From an uncultured Anaerolinea sp. (GTDB lineage: Bacteria; Chloroflexota; Limnocylindria; Limnocylindrales; CSP1-4): a stretch of DNA of 49,284 bases. Of this stretch, positions 302-48,167 are shown one piece after another. The notes beneath the pieces are model-generated. The model was not told the origin of the DNA. It worked only from the letters and a program-made list of their open reading frames with translations, and made no database searches. Positions within the stretch are counted from its first letter, which is position 1; each line of letters starts with the position of its first letter. The stretch spans positions 1 to 49,284 of the forward strand of contig CAZOJS010000250.1 of NCBI GenBank assembly GCA_964580175.1. The letters are read 5' to 3'. Made by a program: the position numbers and the translations under genes.

Positions 302-2707
<2,406 letters not shown>

Positions 2708-2773
2708 GGTCCCGCGGTCCGGCAGGGAGTGCGTTCCGTATGTCGGGCGTGGCCGCCGGGAGACGTGCTTCAG

Positions 2774-5539
2774 CTAGGGCGGCGGTTCGTCCGTGGACAG
2801 GGTCGGCTCCGGCGTCAGCTCCGGTGGCGGTTCGATGCATGGGGTCGGAAGGGGCGTAGCGAACGGATCGAAAGTAGCGAACGGATCGATCGGAGCGACC
2901 GTGGCGAACGGGTCGAAGGTCGTCCCAGGATCGCAGATCGGTGGGAACACCGGCGCGCAGACCTCGGTCGGGGCAAACAGCCCGCCCCAGCTCTTGCCGA
3001 ACGGCGCGAAGCTGTTGTTGTAGAAGTAGCTCGTCTTCGTTTCTTCCGGCCCGCCGGCCACGCCCGGGCCCTGCGCGGCCCGTGTCGCCCAGTCCTGGGT
3101 GAACTCCTGCCAGGCGGGGAACCGCGGCTCGACGCGACTGAAGTCCAGGAAACCCTGGGTGACCATGGGCCCGGCGCATCCGTCCTGCCAGAGCAGCCCC
3201 GTCGCCTCGTCGATGGACAGTTCAAGGTGCAGGTCGTCGGTCCGTGTCGGGACGGTCCCCTCGATGAACAGTTCCTTGACGGTGCTCGCCGTGTAGGGGC
3301 CCGGGAGCAGCCCGCTGAAGGCATCCACCTCCGCCGTCACGAGCCCCGCCGGGCGAATGAACTTGGCGACCGGAAGGCCGAGACTGATTTCGGTCATGAT
3401 CCGCGACCACAGGGGAGCCGAGGAATCAAGCGACAGGCTGCCGGAATTCGGGGTGGCATCCGAGTTGCCCATCCACACGCCAACTGCCAGCGCCGGCGCG
3501 ACCGGGTCCTCTGGTGCGGCGAGATAGCCGAACGCCAGGACGTCCTTGTTGTCCGAGGTCGTGCCCGTCTTGTAGGCGGCCGGGCGCCGCTTGCCGTCCT
3601 CGCGCACCACCCACTTCGACCAGTACGGGTTGACCGCGTTGATCGTATTGCCCTGCAGAATGTCGGTGATGATGTAGGACGCCTGCGCACTGGCCACCTG
3701 CGTCCCCGTCGGCACATCCGACGGGGTCGGGAATACAACGTCGCCACCGGCATTGCGGACCTCGGAAATCATCTGGCGGGGCATCAGCACGCCACCGTTG
3801 CCAATGGCACCGTATGCGGAAAGCAGCTCGATCGGATGGATCTCGAGTGTTCCGATGGACATCGAGGTCACCGGAATGGCGGTTCTGGGAAACGTCAGCC
3901 CGAAGTCCTTCATCCGCTGGAAGAGGTGATCGAGTCCGTTCACCAGGCCCGCCTTGATCGACGGGATGTTGAGTGAGAACTGGAGCGCTGAACGGAGCCG
4001 AACCGGGCCGCGCTCGACCTGGTCGGCCTGGGTCGGGGTAAAGGGCTTCTGCCCGCCGAAGTCCGTCGTCACGTCCATGAACATGGACGCGGCGGTCATC
4101 GATCGGTCGTCAATACCGGTGATGTAGTTGATCGGCTTGATCGCTGAACCCGGCTGGCGGAAGCCATCGGAGAGGACGTCGTACTGCGGCTGGAATGCGA
4201 CCTCGCCGGTCGCGTAGTAGCCGGCACTGCCGGCATAGGCGAGGACCTCGCCGGTCCGGTAGTCGATCACCGCCGATGCCGCATTGTGGATATTGCTGTC
4301 CACGAGCTGGAGAATCCACTTCTGGTCGGCCTCGGGGATCCCAAGCCGCTCAAGGGAGGCTTGTGGGTCGGCGAAGTTCGGCGATCTGGCCGCCGCGAAC
4401 ACCCACTTGTCGACAACCTGCTGCATGTCCCAGTCGAGGGTCGTGGTGATCCGGTAGCCTCCGGTGTCGACTTCCTCGCAGGTGTCGGCAAGCTCCTCGC
4501 CGCACAGAATGGTGCCCAGTTGCCGGCGCACCTGCCAGATGAAGTGGGCGGCCTTCCAGGGTGTGGACGCCTGCCTTGAGAGGACCACAGGCTCCAGCTT
4601 GGCTGCCTCGTATTGCTCGATCGTGTGAGCGCCTCCGGACAGGACGCTCCGGGTCTTCATCAGATCAAGCACCTTGTTGCGACGCACCACGATGCTCGAA
4701 TCCTGGGGCACCACCAGCTGGACGCTGGCCGCGGGGCAGTCCTCTCCCGCGACGATCACAACGGCGCACTCGCTGGCGGCGTTCTTGACGAGATCGAACT
4801 CCGAGGGTGACTGCGGGATTGCGGCGAGGATGGCCACCTCGGCGAGCGTCAGGTCGGCGAGCGTCTTGTTGAAGTAGGTTCGCGCGGCGGCGACCACGCC
4901 GTAGCTCTGGTTCCCGTAGAAGTTCTGATTGAGATAGGCCGTGATGATCTGTTCCTTGCCGTCCTGACCCGGGAATGCCTGGGTCAGGCGGATCGACTGG
5001 ATGATCTCGCGGAACTTTCGTTCGTAGGTCGAGCCCTCGAATGCCTCCTCGGGAAGCAGGCGTGCCCGGACTAGCTGCTGGGTGATCGTGGAACCGCCAC
5101 GTGGACGGCCCTGGAGCGTGTCCACCGTCGCGGACAGGAAGCCGCCGATGTCGAAGCCTGGATTGCTCCAGAAATCCTTGTCCTCGACCGCGGTGGTGGC
5201 ATCAAGCAGTTCGAGGGGAACATTGTCGAAGGTGACGATCTCGCGCTTGTGCTCGCCCAGACGGGCGAGTTCGACCGTGCCGGTCCGGTCGTAGATGATC
5301 GAGGGCTGGTCAAACCCGAGATCCGCGAAGGCCTTGGCTGGATCTGGCAGGTCGCGACTGTAGTACGCATACGCACTGACGACCCCGATGAACGCCGCGC
5401 CGCCGAGGGCAAGGAAACTCGCAAAAAGGAGGATCGGAATGACGAGCGCAACGCGGCTGACGGACTTGCCGCCGCCCCGTCCACGACGCGCAGCGCCGGT
5501 ACGGCGGTGACGCTGACGCCGTGAGAGGCTGGTCTGCAT
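2774..5539 (-). CDS. Class A penicillin-binding protein (transglycosylase/transpeptidase)
   Basis: Glycosyltransferase motifs EDKDFWSNPGFD and RGGSTITQQLVR. Transpeptidase motifs SAIKP (SxxK) and KTGTT. N-terminal TM helix. Start set at ATG 5539 (MQTSLSRRQRH...) rather than the ORF-track 5680. Confidence 0.9.
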   Translation of the reverse strand: MQTSLSRRQRHRRTGAARRGRGGGKSVSRVALVIPILLFASFLALGGAAFIGVVSAYAYYSRDLPDPAKAFADLGFDQPSIIYDRTGTVELARLGEHKREIVTFDNVPLELLDATTAVEDKDFWSNPGFDIGGFLSATVDTLQGRPRGGSTITQQLVRARLLPEEAFEGSTYERKFREIIQSIRLTQAFPGQDGKEQIITAYLNQNFYGNQSYGVVAAARTYFNKTLADLTLAEVAILAAIPQSPSEFDLVKNAASECAVVIVAGEDCPAASVQLVVPQDSSIVVRRNKVLDLMKTRSVLSGGAHTIEQYEAAKLEPVVLSRQASTPWKAAHFIWQVRRQLGTILCGEELADTCEEVDTGGYRITTTLDWDMQQVVDKWVFAAARSPNFADPQASLERLGIPEADQKWILQLVDSNIHNAASAVIDYRTGEVLAYAGSAGYYATGEVAFQPQYDVLSDGFRQPGSAIKPINYITGIDDRSMTAASMFMDVTTDFGGQKPFTPTQADQVERGPVRLRSALQFSLNIPSIKAGLVNGLDHLFQRMKDFGLTFPRTAIPVTSMSIGTLEIHPIELLSAYGAIGNGGVLMPRQMISEVRNAGGDVVFPTPSDVPTGTQVASAQASYIITDILQGNTINAVNPYWSKWVVREDGKRRPAAYKTGTTSDNKDVLAFGYLAAPEDPVAPALAVGVWMGNSDATPNSGSLSLDSSAPLWSRIMTEISLGLPVAKFIRPAGLVTAEVDAFSGLLPGPYTASTVKELFIEGTVPTRTDDLHLELSIDEATGLLWQDGCAGPMVTQGFLDFSRVEPRFPAWQEFTQDWATRAAQGPGVAGGPEETKTSYFYNNSFAPFGKSWGGLFAPTEVCAPVFPPICDPGTTFDPFATVAPIDPFATFDPFATPLPTPCIEPPPELTPEPTLSTDEPPP

Positions 5540-5621
5540 GTCGGCGGCGACGATACCATAGGGACCGTGGAGGACCTTCCCCCGATTCGGCCAGCTCCGT
5601 GACGCCCTGTGACCGTGTCCT

Positions 5622-6917
5622 GTGACGAGCTTCGATCCCGGCCCCGCCGGACTGCTCGATGAACTTCGCTGGCGCGGCATGTTCCACGTCGCATCCGAGG
5701 GCCTGGAAGCCCGTCTGGCGACGGGTCGCCCACTGTCGGGCTACATCGGGTTCGATCCGTCCGGTCCCTCGCTCCACATCGGTCATCTCGTGCCGATCTT
5801 TGGACTCATCCACCTGCAGCGCCATGGCGGGAGTCCGGTTGCCCTCGTCGGCGGGGGAACGGGCATGATCGGCGATCCCTCCGGGCGGTCGACGGAGCGG
5901 AACCTGCTGGATCGGGACACGCTGGCGTCCAACGCCGACTCGATCCGGCGGCAACTGGAGCGGTTTCTCGACTTCGGAACAGGGACCGACGGCGCGCGCC
6001 TGGCCAACAATCGCGACTGGCTGGAGTCGATGACCGTCATCGATTTCCTGCGCGACGTCGGGAAGCACTTCACCGTGCCCTACATGCTGGCCAAGGATTC
6101 GGTCCAGGTCCGCCTGGATCGCGGCCTGTCCTACACCGAATTCAGCTACATGCTCCTGCAATCCGTCGACTTCGCACACCTGCGACGGACGATGGGTGTG
6201 GAGATGCAGATGGGCGGCGCCGACCAGTGGGGCAACATCACGGCCGGGCTTGAATTGATCCGGCGCACGAGCGGCGCGTCGGACGAAGGGTCGTCCGCGT
6301 ACGCGCTCGCCTACCCACTGCTGCTTTCGCCATCGGGGGGCAAGTTCGGCAAGTCGGCCGACGGCGACTCGGTCTGGCTGGACCCGGAACGGACCACGCC
6401 GTTCGCGTTCTACCAGTACTGGCTTAACACCGATGATCGCGACACGGGCACGTATCTTCGATGGTTCACCACAATGGACCCGGCGACGATCGAGTCGCTC
6501 GACGCGGAGTTGGTGGCCAATCCGGGCGCTCGCGAGGCCCAACGAGCCCTGGCGCTGGACATCACCGCCCGAACCCACGGAGCGCCCGTCGCGAGGCAGG
6601 TAGCTGAAGATTCGATGGCCCTATTTGCGCCCGACCCGATCAGCGATCCGGCCCTCCTCGAGCGCCTGCACGGCAGCGTCGGTGGGTTCAGCGTGGCGTC
6701 ATCTGCGTTGACTGAACCGGCGGTCTCCGTGCTCGCTGACGCCGGCATCTTCGGTTCGCGCGGTGAGGCCCGCCGGATGATCCAGAACGGCGGCCTGACG
6801 GTCAACGGCGAGGTGCTCCACGAGCCCGGCGACGCCCTGCCTCCGCCGCTGGCGGGTCGTTGGTGGGAGGTCCGGATCGGCAAGCGCCGGCGCGTGATCG
6901 GCCGCCTCGAGCGCTGA
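5622..6917 (+). CDS. tyrS: Tyrosine--tRNA ligase
   Basis: HIGH-type motif SLHIGHLV, KFGKS (KMSKS-type), C-terminal S4-like domain. GTG start. Confidence 0.93.
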   Translation: MTSFDPGPAGLLDELRWRGMFHVASEGLEARLATGRPLSGYIGFDPSGPSLHIGHLVPIFGLIHLQRHGGSPVALVGGGTGMIGDPSGRSTERNLLDRDTLASNADSIRRQLERFLDFGTGTDGARLANNRDWLESMTVIDFLRDVGKHFTVPYMLAKDSVQVRLDRGLSYTEFSYMLLQSVDFAHLRRTMGVEMQMGGADQWGNITAGLELIRRTSGASDEGSSAYALAYPLLLSPSGGKFGKSADGDSVWLDPERTTPFAFYQYWLNTDDRDTGTYLRWFTTMDPATIESLDAELVANPGAREAQRALALDITARTHGAPVARQVAEDSMALFAPDPISDPALLERLHGSVGGFSVASSALTEPAVSVLADAGIFGSRGEARRMIQNGGLTVNGEVLHEPGDALPPPLAGRWWEVRIGKRRRVIGRLER

Positions 6918-29754: not shown

Positions 29755-31059
29755 GTGCCGAAACGTAACTCGATTGATCTGACGCCGCCTGTCGAGCGGG
29801 CATTCCTGGTCGCGGTCGACACGGGTTCGGACGCGGGCTGGACAGCGGAGGACTCGTTGGTCGAGCTTTCCCACCTCGTCACCACGGCGGGCGCCGAGGT
29901 CGTCGGGGCCGAATGGCAGAACCGACGCCACATCGACCCGAACTGGTATGTGGGCAAGGGCAAAGCCGAGGAGCTCGTGTCGGCCAGGTCGGAGACCAGC
30001 TTCAACCTCCTGGTCACGGACGACGAGCTCTCACCCTCGCAGCAGAAATCGCTCGAGTCGCTGCTCAACGTCAAAGTGATTGACCGCAGCCGGCTGATCC
30101 TTGACATCTTTGCCCAGCACGCGAAGACCCACGAAGGTCGCCTCCAGGTTGAACTGGCACAGCTCGAGTACCAGCTCCCGCGCCTGACCCGTCTGTGGAC
30201 GCACCTGTCCCGGACCGGCGGCGGTATCGGCACCCGCGGCCCTGGCGAGTCGCAGCTCGAGACGGACCGCCGCCTGATCCGCGATCGGATCAAGAAGATG
30301 AAAGCCCGCGTCGAGGAGGTCCGCCAGAACCGGGCCACCACCGCGCGAGGGCGCGATCGACGGCTGATGGCGACCGTCGGCATCGTCGGCTACACGAACG
30401 CGGGCAAGTCAACGCTCCTCAACACGCTCGTCGGGTCCGTGGTCGCGCTTGCCGAGGACAAACTGTTCGCGACGCTTGACCCGACCAGCCGTCAGGTCAA
30501 GCTCGGTGACGGTCAATCGGCGATCGTGACCGACACGGTCGGGTTCATCCACAAACTGCCGCATCAGCTGGTCGATGCCTTTCGAGCCACCCTCGAGGAG
30601 GTCAATCGAGCGGACGTGCTGCTCGAGGTCGTGGATGCCTCTGACGCCCACTTCAGGGAGCACCGGGCGACGGTGCAGGAGGTCCTCGACGACCTCGGAG
30701 CCGGCGACAAGCCCCGGCTCGTCGTGTTCAACAAGGCTGATCTGCTCGCTCCGGCTGCTGCCAATGGGAACACCCCGGCCCCGGCGATCGCCGGGAGTGT
30801 GTTCGTGTCGGCCCTGACCGGCTACGGGATGGACACCCTCAAGGGCGCGCTGTCGGCGCTATTGGCGTCGCTCTGGGTCGAGGTCGACGTGCACGTGCCC
30901 TACGCCGCCGGCGAACTGCTTGCCCGGATCCGGGAGCGCGGCACGATTGCGCTTGACTATCAGCCTCGCGACGTCCGGGTTACCGGTCGCGTTGCACCCG
31001 TGCTGGCGAACGAGCTGGAACGAGCCGCCGCTAGCTGGAGCGAAGCGCTCGAGGCGTAG
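29755..31059 (+). CDS. hflX: GTPase HflX
   Basis: HflX N-domain (QVELAQLEYQLPRL), GYTNAGKSTL, DTVGF, NKAD. Confidence 0.92.
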   Translation: MPKRNSIDLTPPVERAFLVAVDTGSDAGWTAEDSLVELSHLVTTAGAEVVGAEWQNRRHIDPNWYVGKGKAEELVSARSETSFNLLVTDDELSPSQQKSLESLLNVKVIDRSRLILDIFAQHAKTHEGRLQVELAQLEYQLPRLTRLWTHLSRTGGGIGTRGPGESQLETDRRLIRDRIKKMKARVEEVRQNRATTARGRDRRLMATVGIVGYTNAGKSTLLNTLVGSVVALAEDKLFATLDPTSRQVKLGDGQSAIVTDTVGFIHKLPHQLVDAFRATLEEVNRADVLLEVVDASDAHFREHRATVQEVLDDLGAGDKPRLVVFNKADLLAPAAANGNTPAPAIAGSVFVSALTGYGMDTLKGALSALLASLWVEVDVHVPYAAGELLARIRERGTIALDYQPRDVRVTGRVAPVLANELERAAASWSEALEA

Positions 31060-31133
31060 GGTGCAGGGACGCACACTTCCCACGGGGACGCATTGGGGAT
31101 CGCGGGTACCCTGAACTGGTACAGGTCGATGAG

Positions 31134-32117
31134 ATGGTGTCCGCTTCGGGCACCTCGGCCCGGAGTTCTCCCTTGACAGACACCATCGCACGAGATCTGC
31201 ACGACGATCTGGCCCTGCTGATCGAGCTTGAGCCCGAGGCGGCCCGCCTCTACGACCGCCACGCACGGGTCGCCGAGGAATGGTTTCCCCACGATGTCAT
31301 CCCGTACCGGCTCGGGCGCGACTTCGACAAGGAGCCCTGGACCCCTGACCAGCCGCGCCTGACCGGCGTAGCCCAAACGGCCTTTGAGGTGAACCTCCTC
31401 ACCGAGGACAACCTGCCCGCCTACCACCGGCTCATCCACGGGATGTTCGGGGCCGGCGACGGTGCCTGGATCAACTGGATCGGTCGCTGGACCGCCGAAG
31501 AGGGGCGCCATGCCATCGTCCTGCGCGACTACCTGACCGTCACCCGGAATCTCGATCCGATCGCGCTCGAGCGGGGACGGATGACGCAGCTCCAGCATGG
31601 CTACGATCGCGACACGATCGACACACTGCGCGGCCTGGCGTACGTGGCGTTCCAGGAGCTGGCGACCCGTATCTCCCACAAGAACACCGGGCGCTATTCC
31701 GACGATCCGGTCGCAAACAGGATCATGACCCGGATCGCGGCCGACGAGAACCTGCACATGGTCTTCTACCGCGACATCCTGGGCGCGGCGCTGCGGATCC
31801 AGCCGTCACGAGCCGTCCGGGCGATTGTGGCCGAGGTGCTGGCGTTCCAGATGCCTGGCCACGGCATCCCCGGGTTCCTGCGCAAGGCGGCCGCCATCGC
31901 CAAAGCGGGGATCTACGACATCCGGATCCATCGGGACGAGGTCCTGGTCCCGATCATCAACCACTGGAAGATCTTCGAGTTGACGGGCCTGGACGCCGCG
32001 GCGGAAGAGGCCCGGTGGGCCCTGGCGGCGCATCTCGCCACGCTGGAGGCAGCGGCCAAACGGTTCGAGGAGAGGCTCGCCTTGTCGACCGTCCCGAGGA
32101 TCGTACGCGCAGGCTAG
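31134..32117 (+). CDS. Acyl-ACP desaturase (soluble di-iron, DesA-type)
   Basis: NLLTEDNLPAYH, di-iron ExxH motifs EEGRHAI and DENLHM. Confidence 0.85.
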   Translation: MVSASGTSARSSPLTDTIARDLHDDLALLIELEPEAARLYDRHARVAEEWFPHDVIPYRLGRDFDKEPWTPDQPRLTGVAQTAFEVNLLTEDNLPAYHRLIHGMFGAGDGAWINWIGRWTAEEGRHAIVLRDYLTVTRNLDPIALERGRMTQLQHGYDRDTIDTLRGLAYVAFQELATRISHKNTGRYSDDPVANRIMTRIAADENLHMVFYRDILGAALRIQPSRAVRAIVAEVLAFQMPGHGIPGFLRKAAAIAKAGIYDIRIHRDEVLVPIINHWKIFELTGLDAAAEEARWALAAHLATLEAAAKRFEERLALSTVPRIVRAG

Positions 32118-45103: not shown

Positions 45104-45511
45104 TCATTGGAACTCCGGCTCGAGTTGTTCGAACAGCGTGAGCTGGAGCCCGCCCGGCCCGTTCAGCCGAGCGTTCCGTGAGCGCCACGGCGTCTCGGTC
45201 GGGGGCGCGATCAACTCGGCCCCGGCCGCGAGCGCCGCTGCGGTTGCCCCGACTGCATCCGCAACTTGGAGTGCCACCCTGAGGTGCCCCGCAGCCCGGT
45301 GGCCGACCTCGATCTGATCCACATATGCCGCGTGCGGCGGATCCGCGATCTCGAGCGTGGCGCGCCCGGCATCAAGGATCACGACCCGGGTTTCGGTCGT
45401 GCTGAAGGCCGCGAGCTCGGCCATTCCGAGGGTGTCGCGGTAGAACGCGAGCGCGGCCTCGTAGTCAGGCGCCGTCACGACTAACCGCATTTCGAGCACC
45501 CCTGCACCCAT
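45104..45511 (-). CDS. VOC/glyoxalase-family protein
   Basis: About 135 aa. AFYRDTLGM and paired beta-alpha-beta-beta-beta modules by eye. GGAGG Shine-Dalgarno 6 nt upstream of ATG 45511. Confidence 0.75.
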   Translation of the reverse strand: MGAGVLEMRLVVTAPDYEAALAFYRDTLGMAELAAFSTTETRVVILDAGRATLEIADPPHAAYVDQIEVGHRAAGHLRVALQVADAVGATAAALAAGAELIAPPTETPWRSRNARLNGPGGLQLTLFEQLEPEFQ

Positions 45512-46060: not shown

Positions 46061-46732
46061 TCACCCGAATTCCCAGAACGGCCCTCCGAGTCCGAGCCCA
46101 TCCAGGATCGTCTGGCTCTGCTCGCGGGTGCGCGGCTGCCAGTCAGGATCCAACCGGTCGCTCCACCACGCGTTTGCGAGCTCGGCGAGCTTGCTGAGCG
46201 GGAGTGTTGCCCCGCTCGCACGGCCTGCGAGCCACGCCCTGACATGTGCTTCCGACCGGAAGAGCAGCATCGTGCTTCAGGTGAAGCCGATGTCCTGCCA
46301 CCAGGAGACCGCCGGCACGAGGACGTGGAAGACGAGATTTGAGTCATCCGGCAGACCGTCACGGACCGTGATCTCGAGTGGCGCATGGCAATCCGCACAC
46401 TCCGCGCGGATGGTGCTGTCCACCTTCAGTGCAGCGCCGATCCCGAACGCGTCCCAGCCGCAGTTGGCGAACCAGGACCGCCCTCCGGCTTCGACCCGAA
46501 AAGGGGTCGGCTGCGCGGAGAACGGATTGGCCATCCGGATTTCGCCGCCGTGGTCAAGGACGAGCGCGTGGCCTTCGTGGAGCCGCGCCCACCCGTCTCG
46601 GACCGCTGACTCCGCAAGACCGCTCGCCGCGGCCACCTCCCCCACGAACGGTGCCCTGCCGAGCTGGACGAACAGGCGGTAGGTTTCATTCCGAATCGCG
46701 AGATCGATGGGTTCCATGTTGCGGCTGATCAT
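46061..46732 (-). CDS. Alkylmercury lyase (MerB)-family protein with one in-frame TGA at 46279-46277 (candidate selenocysteine, or a nonsense pseudogene)
   Basis: NCGWD aligns with MerB WCALD (Cys96/Asp99). The TGA aligns with the MerB Cys159/160 pair. The two ORF-track pieces (46277-46732 and 46061-46270) are in the same frame. Confidence 0.65.
46249..46262 (-). promoter_or_regulatory. SECIS-like hairpin CUUCC-GGUC-GGAAG downstream of the in-frame UGA
   Basis: 5-bp stem with a GGUC tetraloop. The loop starts 22 nt after the U of UGA. Confidence 0.35.
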
Positions 46733-46819
46733 AGGCCGCCGACCCGTCGATCGGGCGTCCAGGTGCCGTGCAATCTCGGGTACATTCTCAGGCGACCCGC
46801 CCGCGGACCGGAGGATCGG

Positions 46820-47893
46820 ATGACCCAGCGACTCGCCCTGCTCATCGGAACGCCCAAGGGTGCCTTCATCTTCGAAGGCGATGCAGGCCGGCGCGACTGG
46901 CGCCTTCGTGGCCCGCTGTGCGAGGGCTGGCCAATCCACGACATCTCCGTCGATCCCGATTCCGGTGCGCTGCTGGCGGGCGGTGCCAGCCCCTGGTACG
47001 GCGCCGCGGTCTGGCGGAGTGCCGACCTGGGCGCTTCCTGGACCCACTCCAGCGAGGGCCTGACCTACGGCGAGGACGGCCCGAAGGTGACGGCCGTCTG
47101 GAACGTGACCGCGAGCCACGGAACCATCTACGCCGGGGTCCAGCCGGCGGGCCTCTTTCGAAGCAGGGATGACGGGGCGACCTGGGAACACGTGGAGGGC
47201 CTGACCAACCACCCAACACGCCCGGAGTGGCAGCCCGGAGCCGGCGGCCTGATCCTCCATTCGATCGTTCCCCATCGCACCGATTCCCGGCGGATGTGGG
47301 TGGGCATCTCGGCGGTGGGCACGTTCGAAACGCAGGACGGCGGAGCGACCTGGGAGACGAGGAATGGCGGCGTCCGCGCCGATTTCGCGCCGGTGCAGTA
47401 TCCCGAGTTCGGGCAGTGCGTCCACAAGCTGGTCATGGCGGCTGATGGGGGCGAGCACCTCTACCAGCAGAACCATTGCGGCGTCTACCGCTCCGCGGAC
47501 GGCGGCCGGGTGTGGGAGGAAATCACGCCCGGGCTGCCTTCCGAATTCGGCTTCCCGATGGCTGCCCACCCGCGGGACGCACTGATGGTCTGGACGATCC
47601 CGCTCAACGGTGCCGATCGCGGCCGCTATGTGCCCGACGGCAGCGCCGGCGTCTGGCGGACCCACGACGGCGGCAACTCCTGGCTTCGCTCCGGCGATGG
47701 ACTGCCGCAGCAGGAGGCGTACCTGAGTGTGCTCCGAGAGGCGATGGCAATCGATCGCCTCGATCCGGTCGGGGTGTACTTCGGCACCGCCAGCGGGCAC
47801 CTGTACGGAAGTTCCGATGAAGGGCGGTCCTGGCATCTCATTGCCGACAACCTGCCACCAATCTGGTCCGTTGAGGCCGCCGTTCTTGAGTGA
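46820..47893 (+). CDS. BNR/Asp-box repeat (sialidase-fold-like) protein
   Basis: Six SxDxGxxW boxes (SADLGASW, SRDDGATW, TQDGGATW, SADGGRVW, THDGGNSW, SSDEGRSW). GGAGGA Shine-Dalgarno 4 nt before ATG 46820. Confidence 0.8.
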   Translation: MTQRLALLIGTPKGAFIFEGDAGRRDWRLRGPLCEGWPIHDISVDPDSGALLAGGASPWYGAAVWRSADLGASWTHSSEGLTYGEDGPKVTAVWNVTASHGTIYAGVQPAGLFRSRDDGATWEHVEGLTNHPTRPEWQPGAGGLILHSIVPHRTDSRRMWVGISAVGTFETQDGGATWETRNGGVRADFAPVQYPEFGQCVHKLVMAADGGEHLYQQNHCGVYRSADGGRVWEEITPGLPSEFGFPMAAHPRDALMVWTIPLNGADRGRYVPDGSAGVWRTHDGGNSWLRSGDGLPQQEAYLSVLREAMAIDRLDPVGVYFGTASGHLYGSSDEGRSWHLIADNLPPIWSVEAAVLE

Positions 47894-48167
47894 AGCGCCG
47901 GCGCCCGCCATCGTTCACCTGCCGCGGTCCCTGGTTGCACTGTTTCCCGGTGCCTCGAGACGCCTTGAGGCGTGCGGCGCGACGGTGGCCGAAGTGATCG
48001 ATGACCTCGATCGTCAGGTCCCTGGATTGCGCAACCGCGTCCTGGACAGTGGTCCCACGATCCGGACACATCTCAACGTGTTCGTCGCCGGCCAGCTCGC
48101 GGCACTCAGCACCCCGGTGCCGCCCGGCGCAGGCGTTCACATCATTCCCGCCGTCTCGGGCGGATAG
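47886..48167 (+). CDS. MoaD/ThiS-family ubiquitin-like sulfur-carrier protein (C-terminal GG)
   Basis: IVHLPRSLVALFPG...GATVAEVIDDLDRQVPGLRNRV...HIIPAVSGG-stop. The only canonical start is TTG 47886, overlapping the upstream stop. Confidence 0.78.
   Translation: MSEAPAPAIVHLPRSLVALFPGASRRLEACGATVAEVIDDLDRQVPGLRNRVLDSGPTIRTHLNVFVAGQLAALSTPVPPGAGVHIIPAVSGG

Follow-up and report, generated by a model that had tools for sequence, protein, structure and literature searches.

An in-frame TGA codon in a MerB-like gene of a Limnocylindrales contig as a probable selenocysteine codon

The window analysed here is a whole contig of 49,284 nucleotides from an uncultured Anaerolinea sp. of the Limnocylindrales (CAZOJS010000250.1, assembly GCA_964580175.1), and its minus strand carries a MerB-like (organomercurial lyase family) gene that is interrupted by an in-frame TGA. 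The frame runs from ATG 46732 (or ATG 46717) to the stop codon TGA at 46063–46061 and contains one in-frame stop, TGA 46279–46277, after which it continues unchanged with AGC ACG ATG; an earlier note on this DNA had described the frame as continuous from 46732 to 46061 apart from this single codon, and this was borne out. The complete coding sequence of the predicted selenoprotein is 46061..46717 (−), that is, 218 codons including that for selenocysteine (Sec) plus the stop. The start used by all homologues, M-[DE]-x-x-D, is equivalent to ATG 46717 (MEPID...), and the alternative upstream ATG at 46732 (−) would add five residues (MISRN). The internal TGA (46277..46279, −), read as Sec, would be residue 147 and stands in the column of the second catalytic Cys of MerB. 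The 146 codons before it (46280..46717, −) encode a winged-helix-like N-terminal region and most of the MerB core and correspond to the database annotation of a 146-aa 'organomercurial lyase'. The 71 codons past it (46064..46276, −; STMLLFRSEAHV...FWEFG) are integral to the MerB fold, and 46061–46270 (−) is annotated in databases as a 69-aa hypothetical protein. Shortly after the TGA lies a 16-nt block, CTCTTCCGGTCGGAAG (46249..46264, −), predicted to form an apical hairpin like that of a selenocysteine insertion sequence (SECIS). We take the locus, with a probability of roughly 0.88, to be one 218-residue MerB-family gene in which UGA specifies Sec at the second active-site nucleophile and is recoded via the SECIS hairpin.

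The joined protein matched the Pfam family MerB (PF03243) with 88.2 bits (cutoff 27) over residues 71–189. Since this match extends across the TGA, one domain runs through the internal stop. The MerB equivalog models NF033555 and NF009710 gave only 23.7 and 27.9 bits, below their cutoffs of 200 and 193. The family was aligned by hhalign with plasmid MerB, using a reference sequence that is 100% identical to the annotated merB of Serratia marcescens plasmids. At a probability of 89.7%, Cys86 (TGC, 46460..46462, −) and Asp89 (GAC, 46451..46453, −) were aligned with Cys96 and Asp99, in agreement with the earlier matching by eye of FANCGWD to YAWCALD; the spacing of 61 residues between the first Cys and the TGA was likewise found as described. 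Neither Cys86 nor Asp89 varies among the Sec-type sequences, and Cys86 is conserved to at least 90% in the wider family. A further pair, Cys107-Ala-Asp-Cys110 (46388..46399, −), is conserved at both Cys in 99% of 80 orthologues (columns −40 and −37 from Sec), and Cys107 was aligned by hhalign with the structural Cys117 of MerB. Cys-type relatives without Cys107-x-x-Cys110 tend to have CxxC, not CxxD, at the first catalytic motif (CAWC, CLYC). The sequence CADCH, in which this pair is found in the window, mimics the haem c motif CXXCH, a resemblance that accounts for spurious cytochrome c names and weak Pfam matches.

MerB depends on Cys96, Asp99 and Cys159 but can do without Cys160 (PMC10114901). 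HMMER, aligning without gaps to MerB2 (PDB 5c17), where this region has a lone Cys, placed U147 on that Cys, and a lone Cys (T-C) stands in exactly the UGA column of about 30 full-length relatives. From this conservation we conclude that U147 would be the functional equivalent of MerB Cys159. The AlphaFold2 model of the Cys homologue P0002 (219 residues) was of high confidence (predicted local distance difference test score, pLDDT, 97.8, with every residue above 90; predicted template modelling score 0.93), and its 11 best PDB matches by Foldseek were all MerB or MerB2 (E values of 6e-10 to 2e-6, template modelling scores of 0.47–0.70, 193–220 aligned columns). Judged by this model, the 146-aa product would be without one third of the MerB fold. 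A structure model built from an alignment of fragments had a core pLDDT below 50 and was discarded; a PDB profile search based on fragments was confined to the N-terminal 146 positions and gave no information on the Sec column.

Relatives were collected by a search of 5.8 billion proteins, which yielded 1353 of them, and by a nucleotide search with one genome per species, in which 534 were confirmed. The best 80 of the latter were fetched and, together with the window gene, form a close set of 81 orthologues from Chloroflexota/Limnocylindria and Actinomycetota (60–93% protein identity); the nearest species representative is a Candidatus Limnocylindrales metagenome-assembled genome (MAG) with 92% protein identity for the MerB-like gene. 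Query residues 1–218 were covered by tblastn in almost all of the 80 genomes. Nearly all of the best 120 protein homologues are 146 aa long and end with ...DIG[F/Y]T, which means that gene callers stop at the same codon across many independent assemblies. The sole full-length protein among these 120 is P0002, which is 60% identical and has Cys in the Sec column. A search with the 71 residues that follow the TGA returned 76 orphan open reading frames (ORFs) of 69 aa, including the window's own (P0121). The earlier note had proposed an alignment of homologues to see whether Cys or Sec occupies this column. The codon was TGA in 79 of the 81 orthologues (the window and 78 loci), TAG in two and a sense codon in none, and the residues around it were T-U-[S/G] in every case. 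Four genes from clusters of about 40% identity have TGA too, followed by 71–80 further in-frame codons. Among the best 150 clusters at 50% identity, about 75 end exactly before the Sec column (...FT), 30 are full length with Cys, and a few have W, H, A or Y.

At its true end the gene terminates with TGA in 44 orthologues and with TAG in 35, compared with 79 and 2 for the internal codon; by this measure, the internal TGA does not behave as a stop codon. The downstream stretch of about 70 codons is free of stops in all orthologues. Pairwise differences at codon positions 1/2/3 were 0.25/0.20/0.49 downstream (codons +11 to +45) versus 0.19/0.21/0.38 in the 20 codons upstream, a pattern on both sides of the TGA that indicates purifying selection on the protein and a coding 3' part. 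These data bear on the alternative raised in the earlier note, a pseudogene created by a TGC/TGT to TGA nonsense mutation. A single base separates TGA from TGC or TGT, and public annotation does treat the gene as truncated, but the presence of TGA or TAG in 81/81 orthologues and also in clusters further removed, the selection acting on some 70 stop-free downstream codons, and the conserved RNA element after the TGA (see below) refute this explanation, whose probability we consider close to nil. Still less credit can be given to an assembly or base-calling error at 46277–46279: it has in its favour only the general possibility of such errors in a metagenome-assembled contig, and the same feature recurs in assemblies that many projects made independently with different technologies.

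The loci with TAG, L052 and L060 (the latter from Blastococcus jejuensis JCM 15614), show synteny at 81–88% DNA identity and thus represent one lineage. Geodermatophilaceae, including Blastococcus, have a tRNA-Sec with a CUA anticodon and selenoprotein genes in which UAG encodes Sec (PMC5330540). The internal codon appears to have followed the change of the tRNA-Sec anticodon in this Blastococcus-like lineage, which is suggestive but, as a single event, not conclusive alone. Both loci also have in common a tandem repeat whose unit measures about 30 nt (L052:3590–3872 and L060:1–267), seen as laddered blastn matches of 93–97% identity.

The SECIS-like hairpin consists of CUUCC (46262–46258), GGUC (46257–46254) and GGAAG (46253–46249); it begins 15 nt past the UGA, with the loop at nt 23–26 (U of UGA = 1). 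The string CTCTTCCGGTCGGA[A/G]G, of which the first nucleotide lies 13 nt past the TGA, was present in every Sec-type gene, 81/81 close and 4/4 distant, so that the search for a SECIS after the TGA, which the earlier note had called for, gave an invariant CUUCC-GGUC-GGAAG in 85/85 Sec-type genes. That note had also named TGC in close relatives, together with a lack of SECIS conservation, as evidence that would speak against Sec; Cys codons were found in 0/81 orthologues and the hairpin did not vary. The hairpin overlies the codons for L-F-R-S-E, which are CTC (63/63), TTC (80/80), CGG (80/80) and TCG (80/80) for the first four, and codons +5 to +8 show no synonymous change at all. The Glu codon is GAA in 68 of 80 genes despite the GC bias, and the alternative GAG retains a G-U pair. 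The other invariant Arg residues of the MerB-like gene make use of five different codons. Divergence at codon position 3 was 0.05 in the hairpin versus 0.38–0.49 in the flanks.

This constraint is relaxed in genes with a sense codon in the Sec column. Five Cys-type genes (TGC/TGT) that keep F-R-S use CGG/CGC/CGC/CGG/CGA for Arg and TCT/TCG/TCG/TCC/TCT for Ser, by which 2–4 of the five stem pairs remain, and an Ala-type gene has CGT-TCC at the F-R-S codons. The hairpin is lost in Cys-type genes despite the retention of F-R-S, and the RNA constraint therefore tracks the recoded stop and not the peptide. The only non-Sec gene with a fully intact hairpin is the Trp-type P0207 (L089:255–950), with TGG in the Sec column; in the Cys-type P0002 (L087:174–833, TGC) the hairpin is partly decayed (TCG to TCT, and G to A in the next codon). 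P0207 looks like a recent TGA to TGG change and, together with P0002, may provide snapshots of Sec loss. As in the E. coli fdhF-type SECIS, the hairpin lies within the coding region soon after the UGA and has a GGUC apical loop about 20 nt on; unlike that element, it has another stem sequence, and the putative element must also encode L-F-R-S-E. The essential loop bases of the fdhF SECIS are said, after Huttenhofer and Bock, to be G23 and U24.

Genes for Sec synthesis and insertion were sought by tblastn of the annotated E. coli SelA, SelB and SelD against 1.2 Mb of locus DNA. One strong match was obtained, SelD in a Limnocylindrales MAG (L023; TIGR00476 325.6 bits, cutoff 125), encoded 0.8 kb upstream of the MerB-like gene; this is the only one of the 80 loci with selD in the flanks. 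SelA and SelB gave only generic GTPase-domain matches in the 1.2 Mb, for example to elongation factor G (EF-G). The L023 cluster (859–5649) comprises selD (859–1983, Cys form), a small ORF (1980–2426), the MerB-like gene (2656–3309, TGA 3094–3096) and, directly downstream, the gene for formate dehydrogenase alpha (fdhA; best model TIGR01591, 639 bits). The latter has its Sec UGA at 3988–3990 in a canonical site (...NNIDSCNRT-TGA-HAPSVAGL) and a SECIS, GUCGCC-GGUCU-GGCGAC, with GGUC at nt 22–25, compared with nt 23–26 in the MerB-like gene. A scan of the 1.2 Mb of flanks for TGA or TAG followed by a GGUC hairpin with a strict 4-nt loop yielded shadow frames only; it missed the L023 fdhA, found through its peptide motif, because the loop of that element is 5 nt. 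ARAGORN found no tRNA-Sec in the window and 50 loci, and the scan of the window with Rfam gathering thresholds gave no tRNA-Sec or SECIS family. Four ARAGORN tRNA calls of 91–97 nt (L062:11310–11406, L076:15641–15735, L020:13428–13522 and L043:240–330), two of which were 'tRNA-Cys(GCA)' at 2–5 kb from the MerB-like gene, show mispaired stems and extra arms that lack structure; in GC-rich DNA they are probably spurious.

Read-through of the UGA at this site could in principle insert another amino acid, either Cys via a tRNA-Sec-like tRNA-Cys or Trp by a near-cognate tRNA. The relative with TGG and an intact hairpin would fit this, and tRNA-Sec-like Cys tRNAs have reportedly been proposed (by Mukai et al. 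in 2017) as opal suppressors in some bacteria. However, UGA is a normal stop in these genomes, the RNA element is similar to the SECIS of a canonical Sec enzyme encoded in one and the same genome and near selD, and the 'long tRNA-Cys' predicted near two loci fold poorly; we regard insertion of another amino acid as unlikely.

The codon at +3 after Sec (46268–46270) is ATG and invariant in the 81 close Sec-type genes, and it is the reason that the 69-aa orphan ORF is annotated. It opens a further explanation, a split gene in which translation would stop at the UGA and restart at the ATG two codons on, so that chains of 146 and 69 aa assemble a MerB-like fold. In about half of the close orthologues the sequence TGAGG moreover provides a Shine-Dalgarno-like GAGG before the ATG, and gene callers do annotate the 69-aa ORF. 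In a split gene, however, the catalytic nucleophile that Cys-type relatives retain would be lost; codon +3 is ATC in the distant Sec-type loci L083 and L084 (and I/L/M/V/T in Cys-type relatives); and neither the bias of 79 TGA to 2 TAG, compared with 44 to 35 at the true stop, nor the TAG switch in a lineage that reads UAG as Sec, nor the hairpin common to the fdhA SECIS is explained. We therefore hold a split gene to be very improbable. One candidate reason for the ATG at codon +3 is pairing in a SECIS lower stem (AUG with YGU of the His-Val codons). Such a lower stem, formed by the ATG codon with the His-Val codons, was present in the minimum free energy fold of a 42-nt segment and would define a possible, weakly supported extended SECIS (46238..46276, −).

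A number of results weigh against the assignment of Sec to residue 147, or limit it. In the hhalign alignment, F-T-U-S-T-M-L-L-F was placed opposite F-C-C-(gap)-H-V-H-F-F, with U literally facing Cys160. Because the gap adjoins U, the register with respect to Cys159 and Cys160 is uncertain by one residue. The earlier placement of the TGA on the catalytic Cys159 column is thus backed by the lone Cys of MerB2 and by the Cys-type relatives, but not by hhalign. The structure model is that of P0002, which is 60% identical to the window protein, and its input alignment was composed of diverse full-length relatives. At the RNA level, the extended lower stem showed no covariation beyond that of shuffles (40/500 and 61/500), and RNAalifold retained only the invariant 5-bp stem, which, being invariant, is without covariation. 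Nor was the folding energy of the hairpin better than that of GC-matched shuffles (z of +0.56 to −1.22, with +0.56 for the extended segment), a comparison that is uninformative in GC-rich sequence. No selA, selB, selC or selD was found in the 49-kb window. Sec insertion in this organism, the lyase activity and the substrate are what we infer from relatives and from MerB. Overall, the earlier proposal of a candidate selenoprotein is strongly supported at the family level and very likely true for the window gene, on account of the conserved TGA, the Sec/Cys pair in one column, the frozen SECIS-like element, the UAG switch and the selD/fdhA cluster of L023; its claim to novelty did not hold.

The earlier note knew of no described Sec-containing MerB-family enzyme, which is wrong. 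SaoL (NCBIfam NF040728; Haft & Gwadz, bioRxiv 10.1101/2022.07.06.499078, J Bacteriol 2023) is a Sec-containing MerB homologue of strict anaerobes with a C-U motif, the Sec of which superposes on MerB Cys159, and it marks the nine-gene SAO operon (10.1101/2022.07.06.499078). It is present in selenoproteome reviews of 2022 and 2026, the latter of which lists it as the only Sec-containing MerB relative. As SaoL is already known, the window gene is not the first Sec-containing MerB. Like SaoL, it encodes a PF03243 protein with a predicted UGA-encoded Sec in the column of the second catalytic Cys; SaoL is likewise typically cut off in databases at the UGA, has about 50–70 residues beyond it and has rare Cys members. 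The two differ in several respects. The window protein scored 45 bits against NF040728 (cutoff 140), with a match limited to residues 37–126, and the motif of its clade is T-U-[S/G] rather than C-U. The window clade lacks the nine-gene SAO neighbourhood (SaoB, C, E, P, T, X and others), and nothing near its genes resembles the ABC-transporter set. The hosts of SaoL are strict anaerobes of the Firmicutes, Deltaproteobacteria and Spirochaetes, whereas those of the window clade are Limnocylindria/Chloroflexota, Gaiellales, Thermoleophilia, Acidimicrobiia and Geodermatophilaceae from soil and freshwater; and only the latter clade includes UAG-encoded members. On these grounds, the window gene belongs to another Sec-containing clade within the MerB family, the second one, which is distinct from SaoL and apparently unannotated. 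NCBIfam release 20 has no model that covers the clade as a selenoprotein, and no description of it as such was found in the literature searched, a search that was incomplete, so that an earlier listing is possible.

With MerB (R831b/Serratia pDU1358 type; PDB 3F0P, 3F2F) and Bacillus megaterium MerB2 (PDB 5C17) the protein would have in common the fold, and with MerB the equivalents of Cys96, Asp99 and Cys117 and, within the one-residue uncertainty of the register, a predicted nucleophile at the Cys159 column. Unlike MerB, with which it is about 19% identical, it has a predicted Sec for Cys, the extra CxxC partner Cys110, and no merA, merR, merT or merP nearby. The Cys-type relatives (such as P0002, P0204 and P0220) are 30–60% identical over the full length, with the same T-[C/U]-x-T-x-x-x-F-R-S region; they differ by TGC or TGT at the recoded position, the lack of the hairpin and, in some, CxxC in place of CxxD.

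In the mechanism that we propose, the two annotated ORFs are one gene and the UGA at 46279–46277 would be recoded by SelB and Sec-tRNA(Sec), directed by the hairpin CUUCC-GGUC-GGAAG within the coding sequence 15 nt downstream, to which SelB putatively binds. The product would have a MerB fold with a Cys86/Asp89/Sec147 triad. If the enzyme works as MerB does, an organometal(loid) would be held at its metal by the Cys86 thiolate together with the Sec147 selenolate, and Asp89 would give the proton by which the carbon–metal bond is cleaved (protonolysis). At neutral pH most of a selenol is deprotonated, and its affinity for soft metals exceeds that of a thiol. The selenolate could favour the capture of a trace substrate, yet hinder the release of the product, and no MerA is encoded nearby to take away Hg(II). 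Cys107-x-x-Cys110 might, speculatively, join in the hand-off of the metal or be structural. Mercury is not established as the substrate, which is at present suggested by analogy with MerB; neither merA nor a mer operon is present.

More than 1000 database clusters show the MerB-like gene as two entries, an 'organomercurial lyase' of 146 aa and a 'hypothetical protein' of 69 aa. A broader proposal, to which we give somewhat less than even odds, is that these represent a widespread, hitherto undescribed and systematically mis-annotated family of Sec-dependent MerB-type organometal(loid) lyases, present in at least 534 species-level genomes, that works without MerA or a mer operon and has followed the change of the Sec codon from UGA to UAG in the Geodermatophilaceae. 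The at least 534 genomes are mostly those of aerobic soil and freshwater Limnocylindria/Chloroflexota and Actinomycetota. Surveys of merB that demand Cys96, Asp99 and Cys159 (e.g. PMC8261052) would discard the truncated proteins, and MerB-like capacity in Chloroflexota and Actinomycetota is under-counted as a result. If the substrate is methylmercury, a large part of the demethylation potential of soil would be invisible to such surveys; if it is not mercury, the family would represent new Sec-dependent carbon–metal(loid) chemistry in aerobes. Aerobes seldom keep selenoproteins according to reviews, and the clade is almost always in its Sec form in lineages of oxic soil. For the Geodermatophilaceae the gene would add one more UAG-encoded selenoprotein. 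The natural series of Sec, Cys and Trp forms with decay of the SECIS may be useful for studying Sec-to-Cys conversion.

In the window, the MerB-like gene is surrounded by genes for a BNR-repeat protein, a glyoxalase, an alpha/beta hydrolase and a DUF1684 protein. That the gene is not part of a mer operon, as the earlier note had it, was confirmed: no mer genes adjoin it, and clustering of the neighbours in 79 loci revealed no conserved SAO-like or mer-like neighbourhood, with no family present in more than 11 of the 79. A glyoxalase/VOC gene adjoins the MerB-like gene in the window (45104–45511, −) and is located directly upstream of it in the distant Sec-type loci (L083:238–627 and L084:1081–1470); apart from it nothing hints at a neighbour that recurs, and it did not reach significance when the 79 loci were clustered. 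The further gene content of the window is housekeeping (mutS2, a penicillin-binding protein, tyrS, hisBDG, EF-G, ruvB, tgt, recA, rny, miaB/A and hflX, among others) and includes RNase Y and YmdB; no tRNA genes were found in it. The Rfam scan gave a match to the mycobacterial antisense RNA ASdes (RF01781) at 31500–31567 (−; 45.8 bits, gathering threshold 40), antisense within a fatty-acid desaturase gene (31035–32114, +), and may reflect conserved coding sequence of the desaturase. Divergent from the MerB-like gene, the BNR/Sortilin-repeat gene (46763–47893) is followed by an ORF at 47727–48167 (+) that ends with ...IIPAVSGG, a Gly-Gly C-terminus as in the sulfur carriers MoaD and ThiS.

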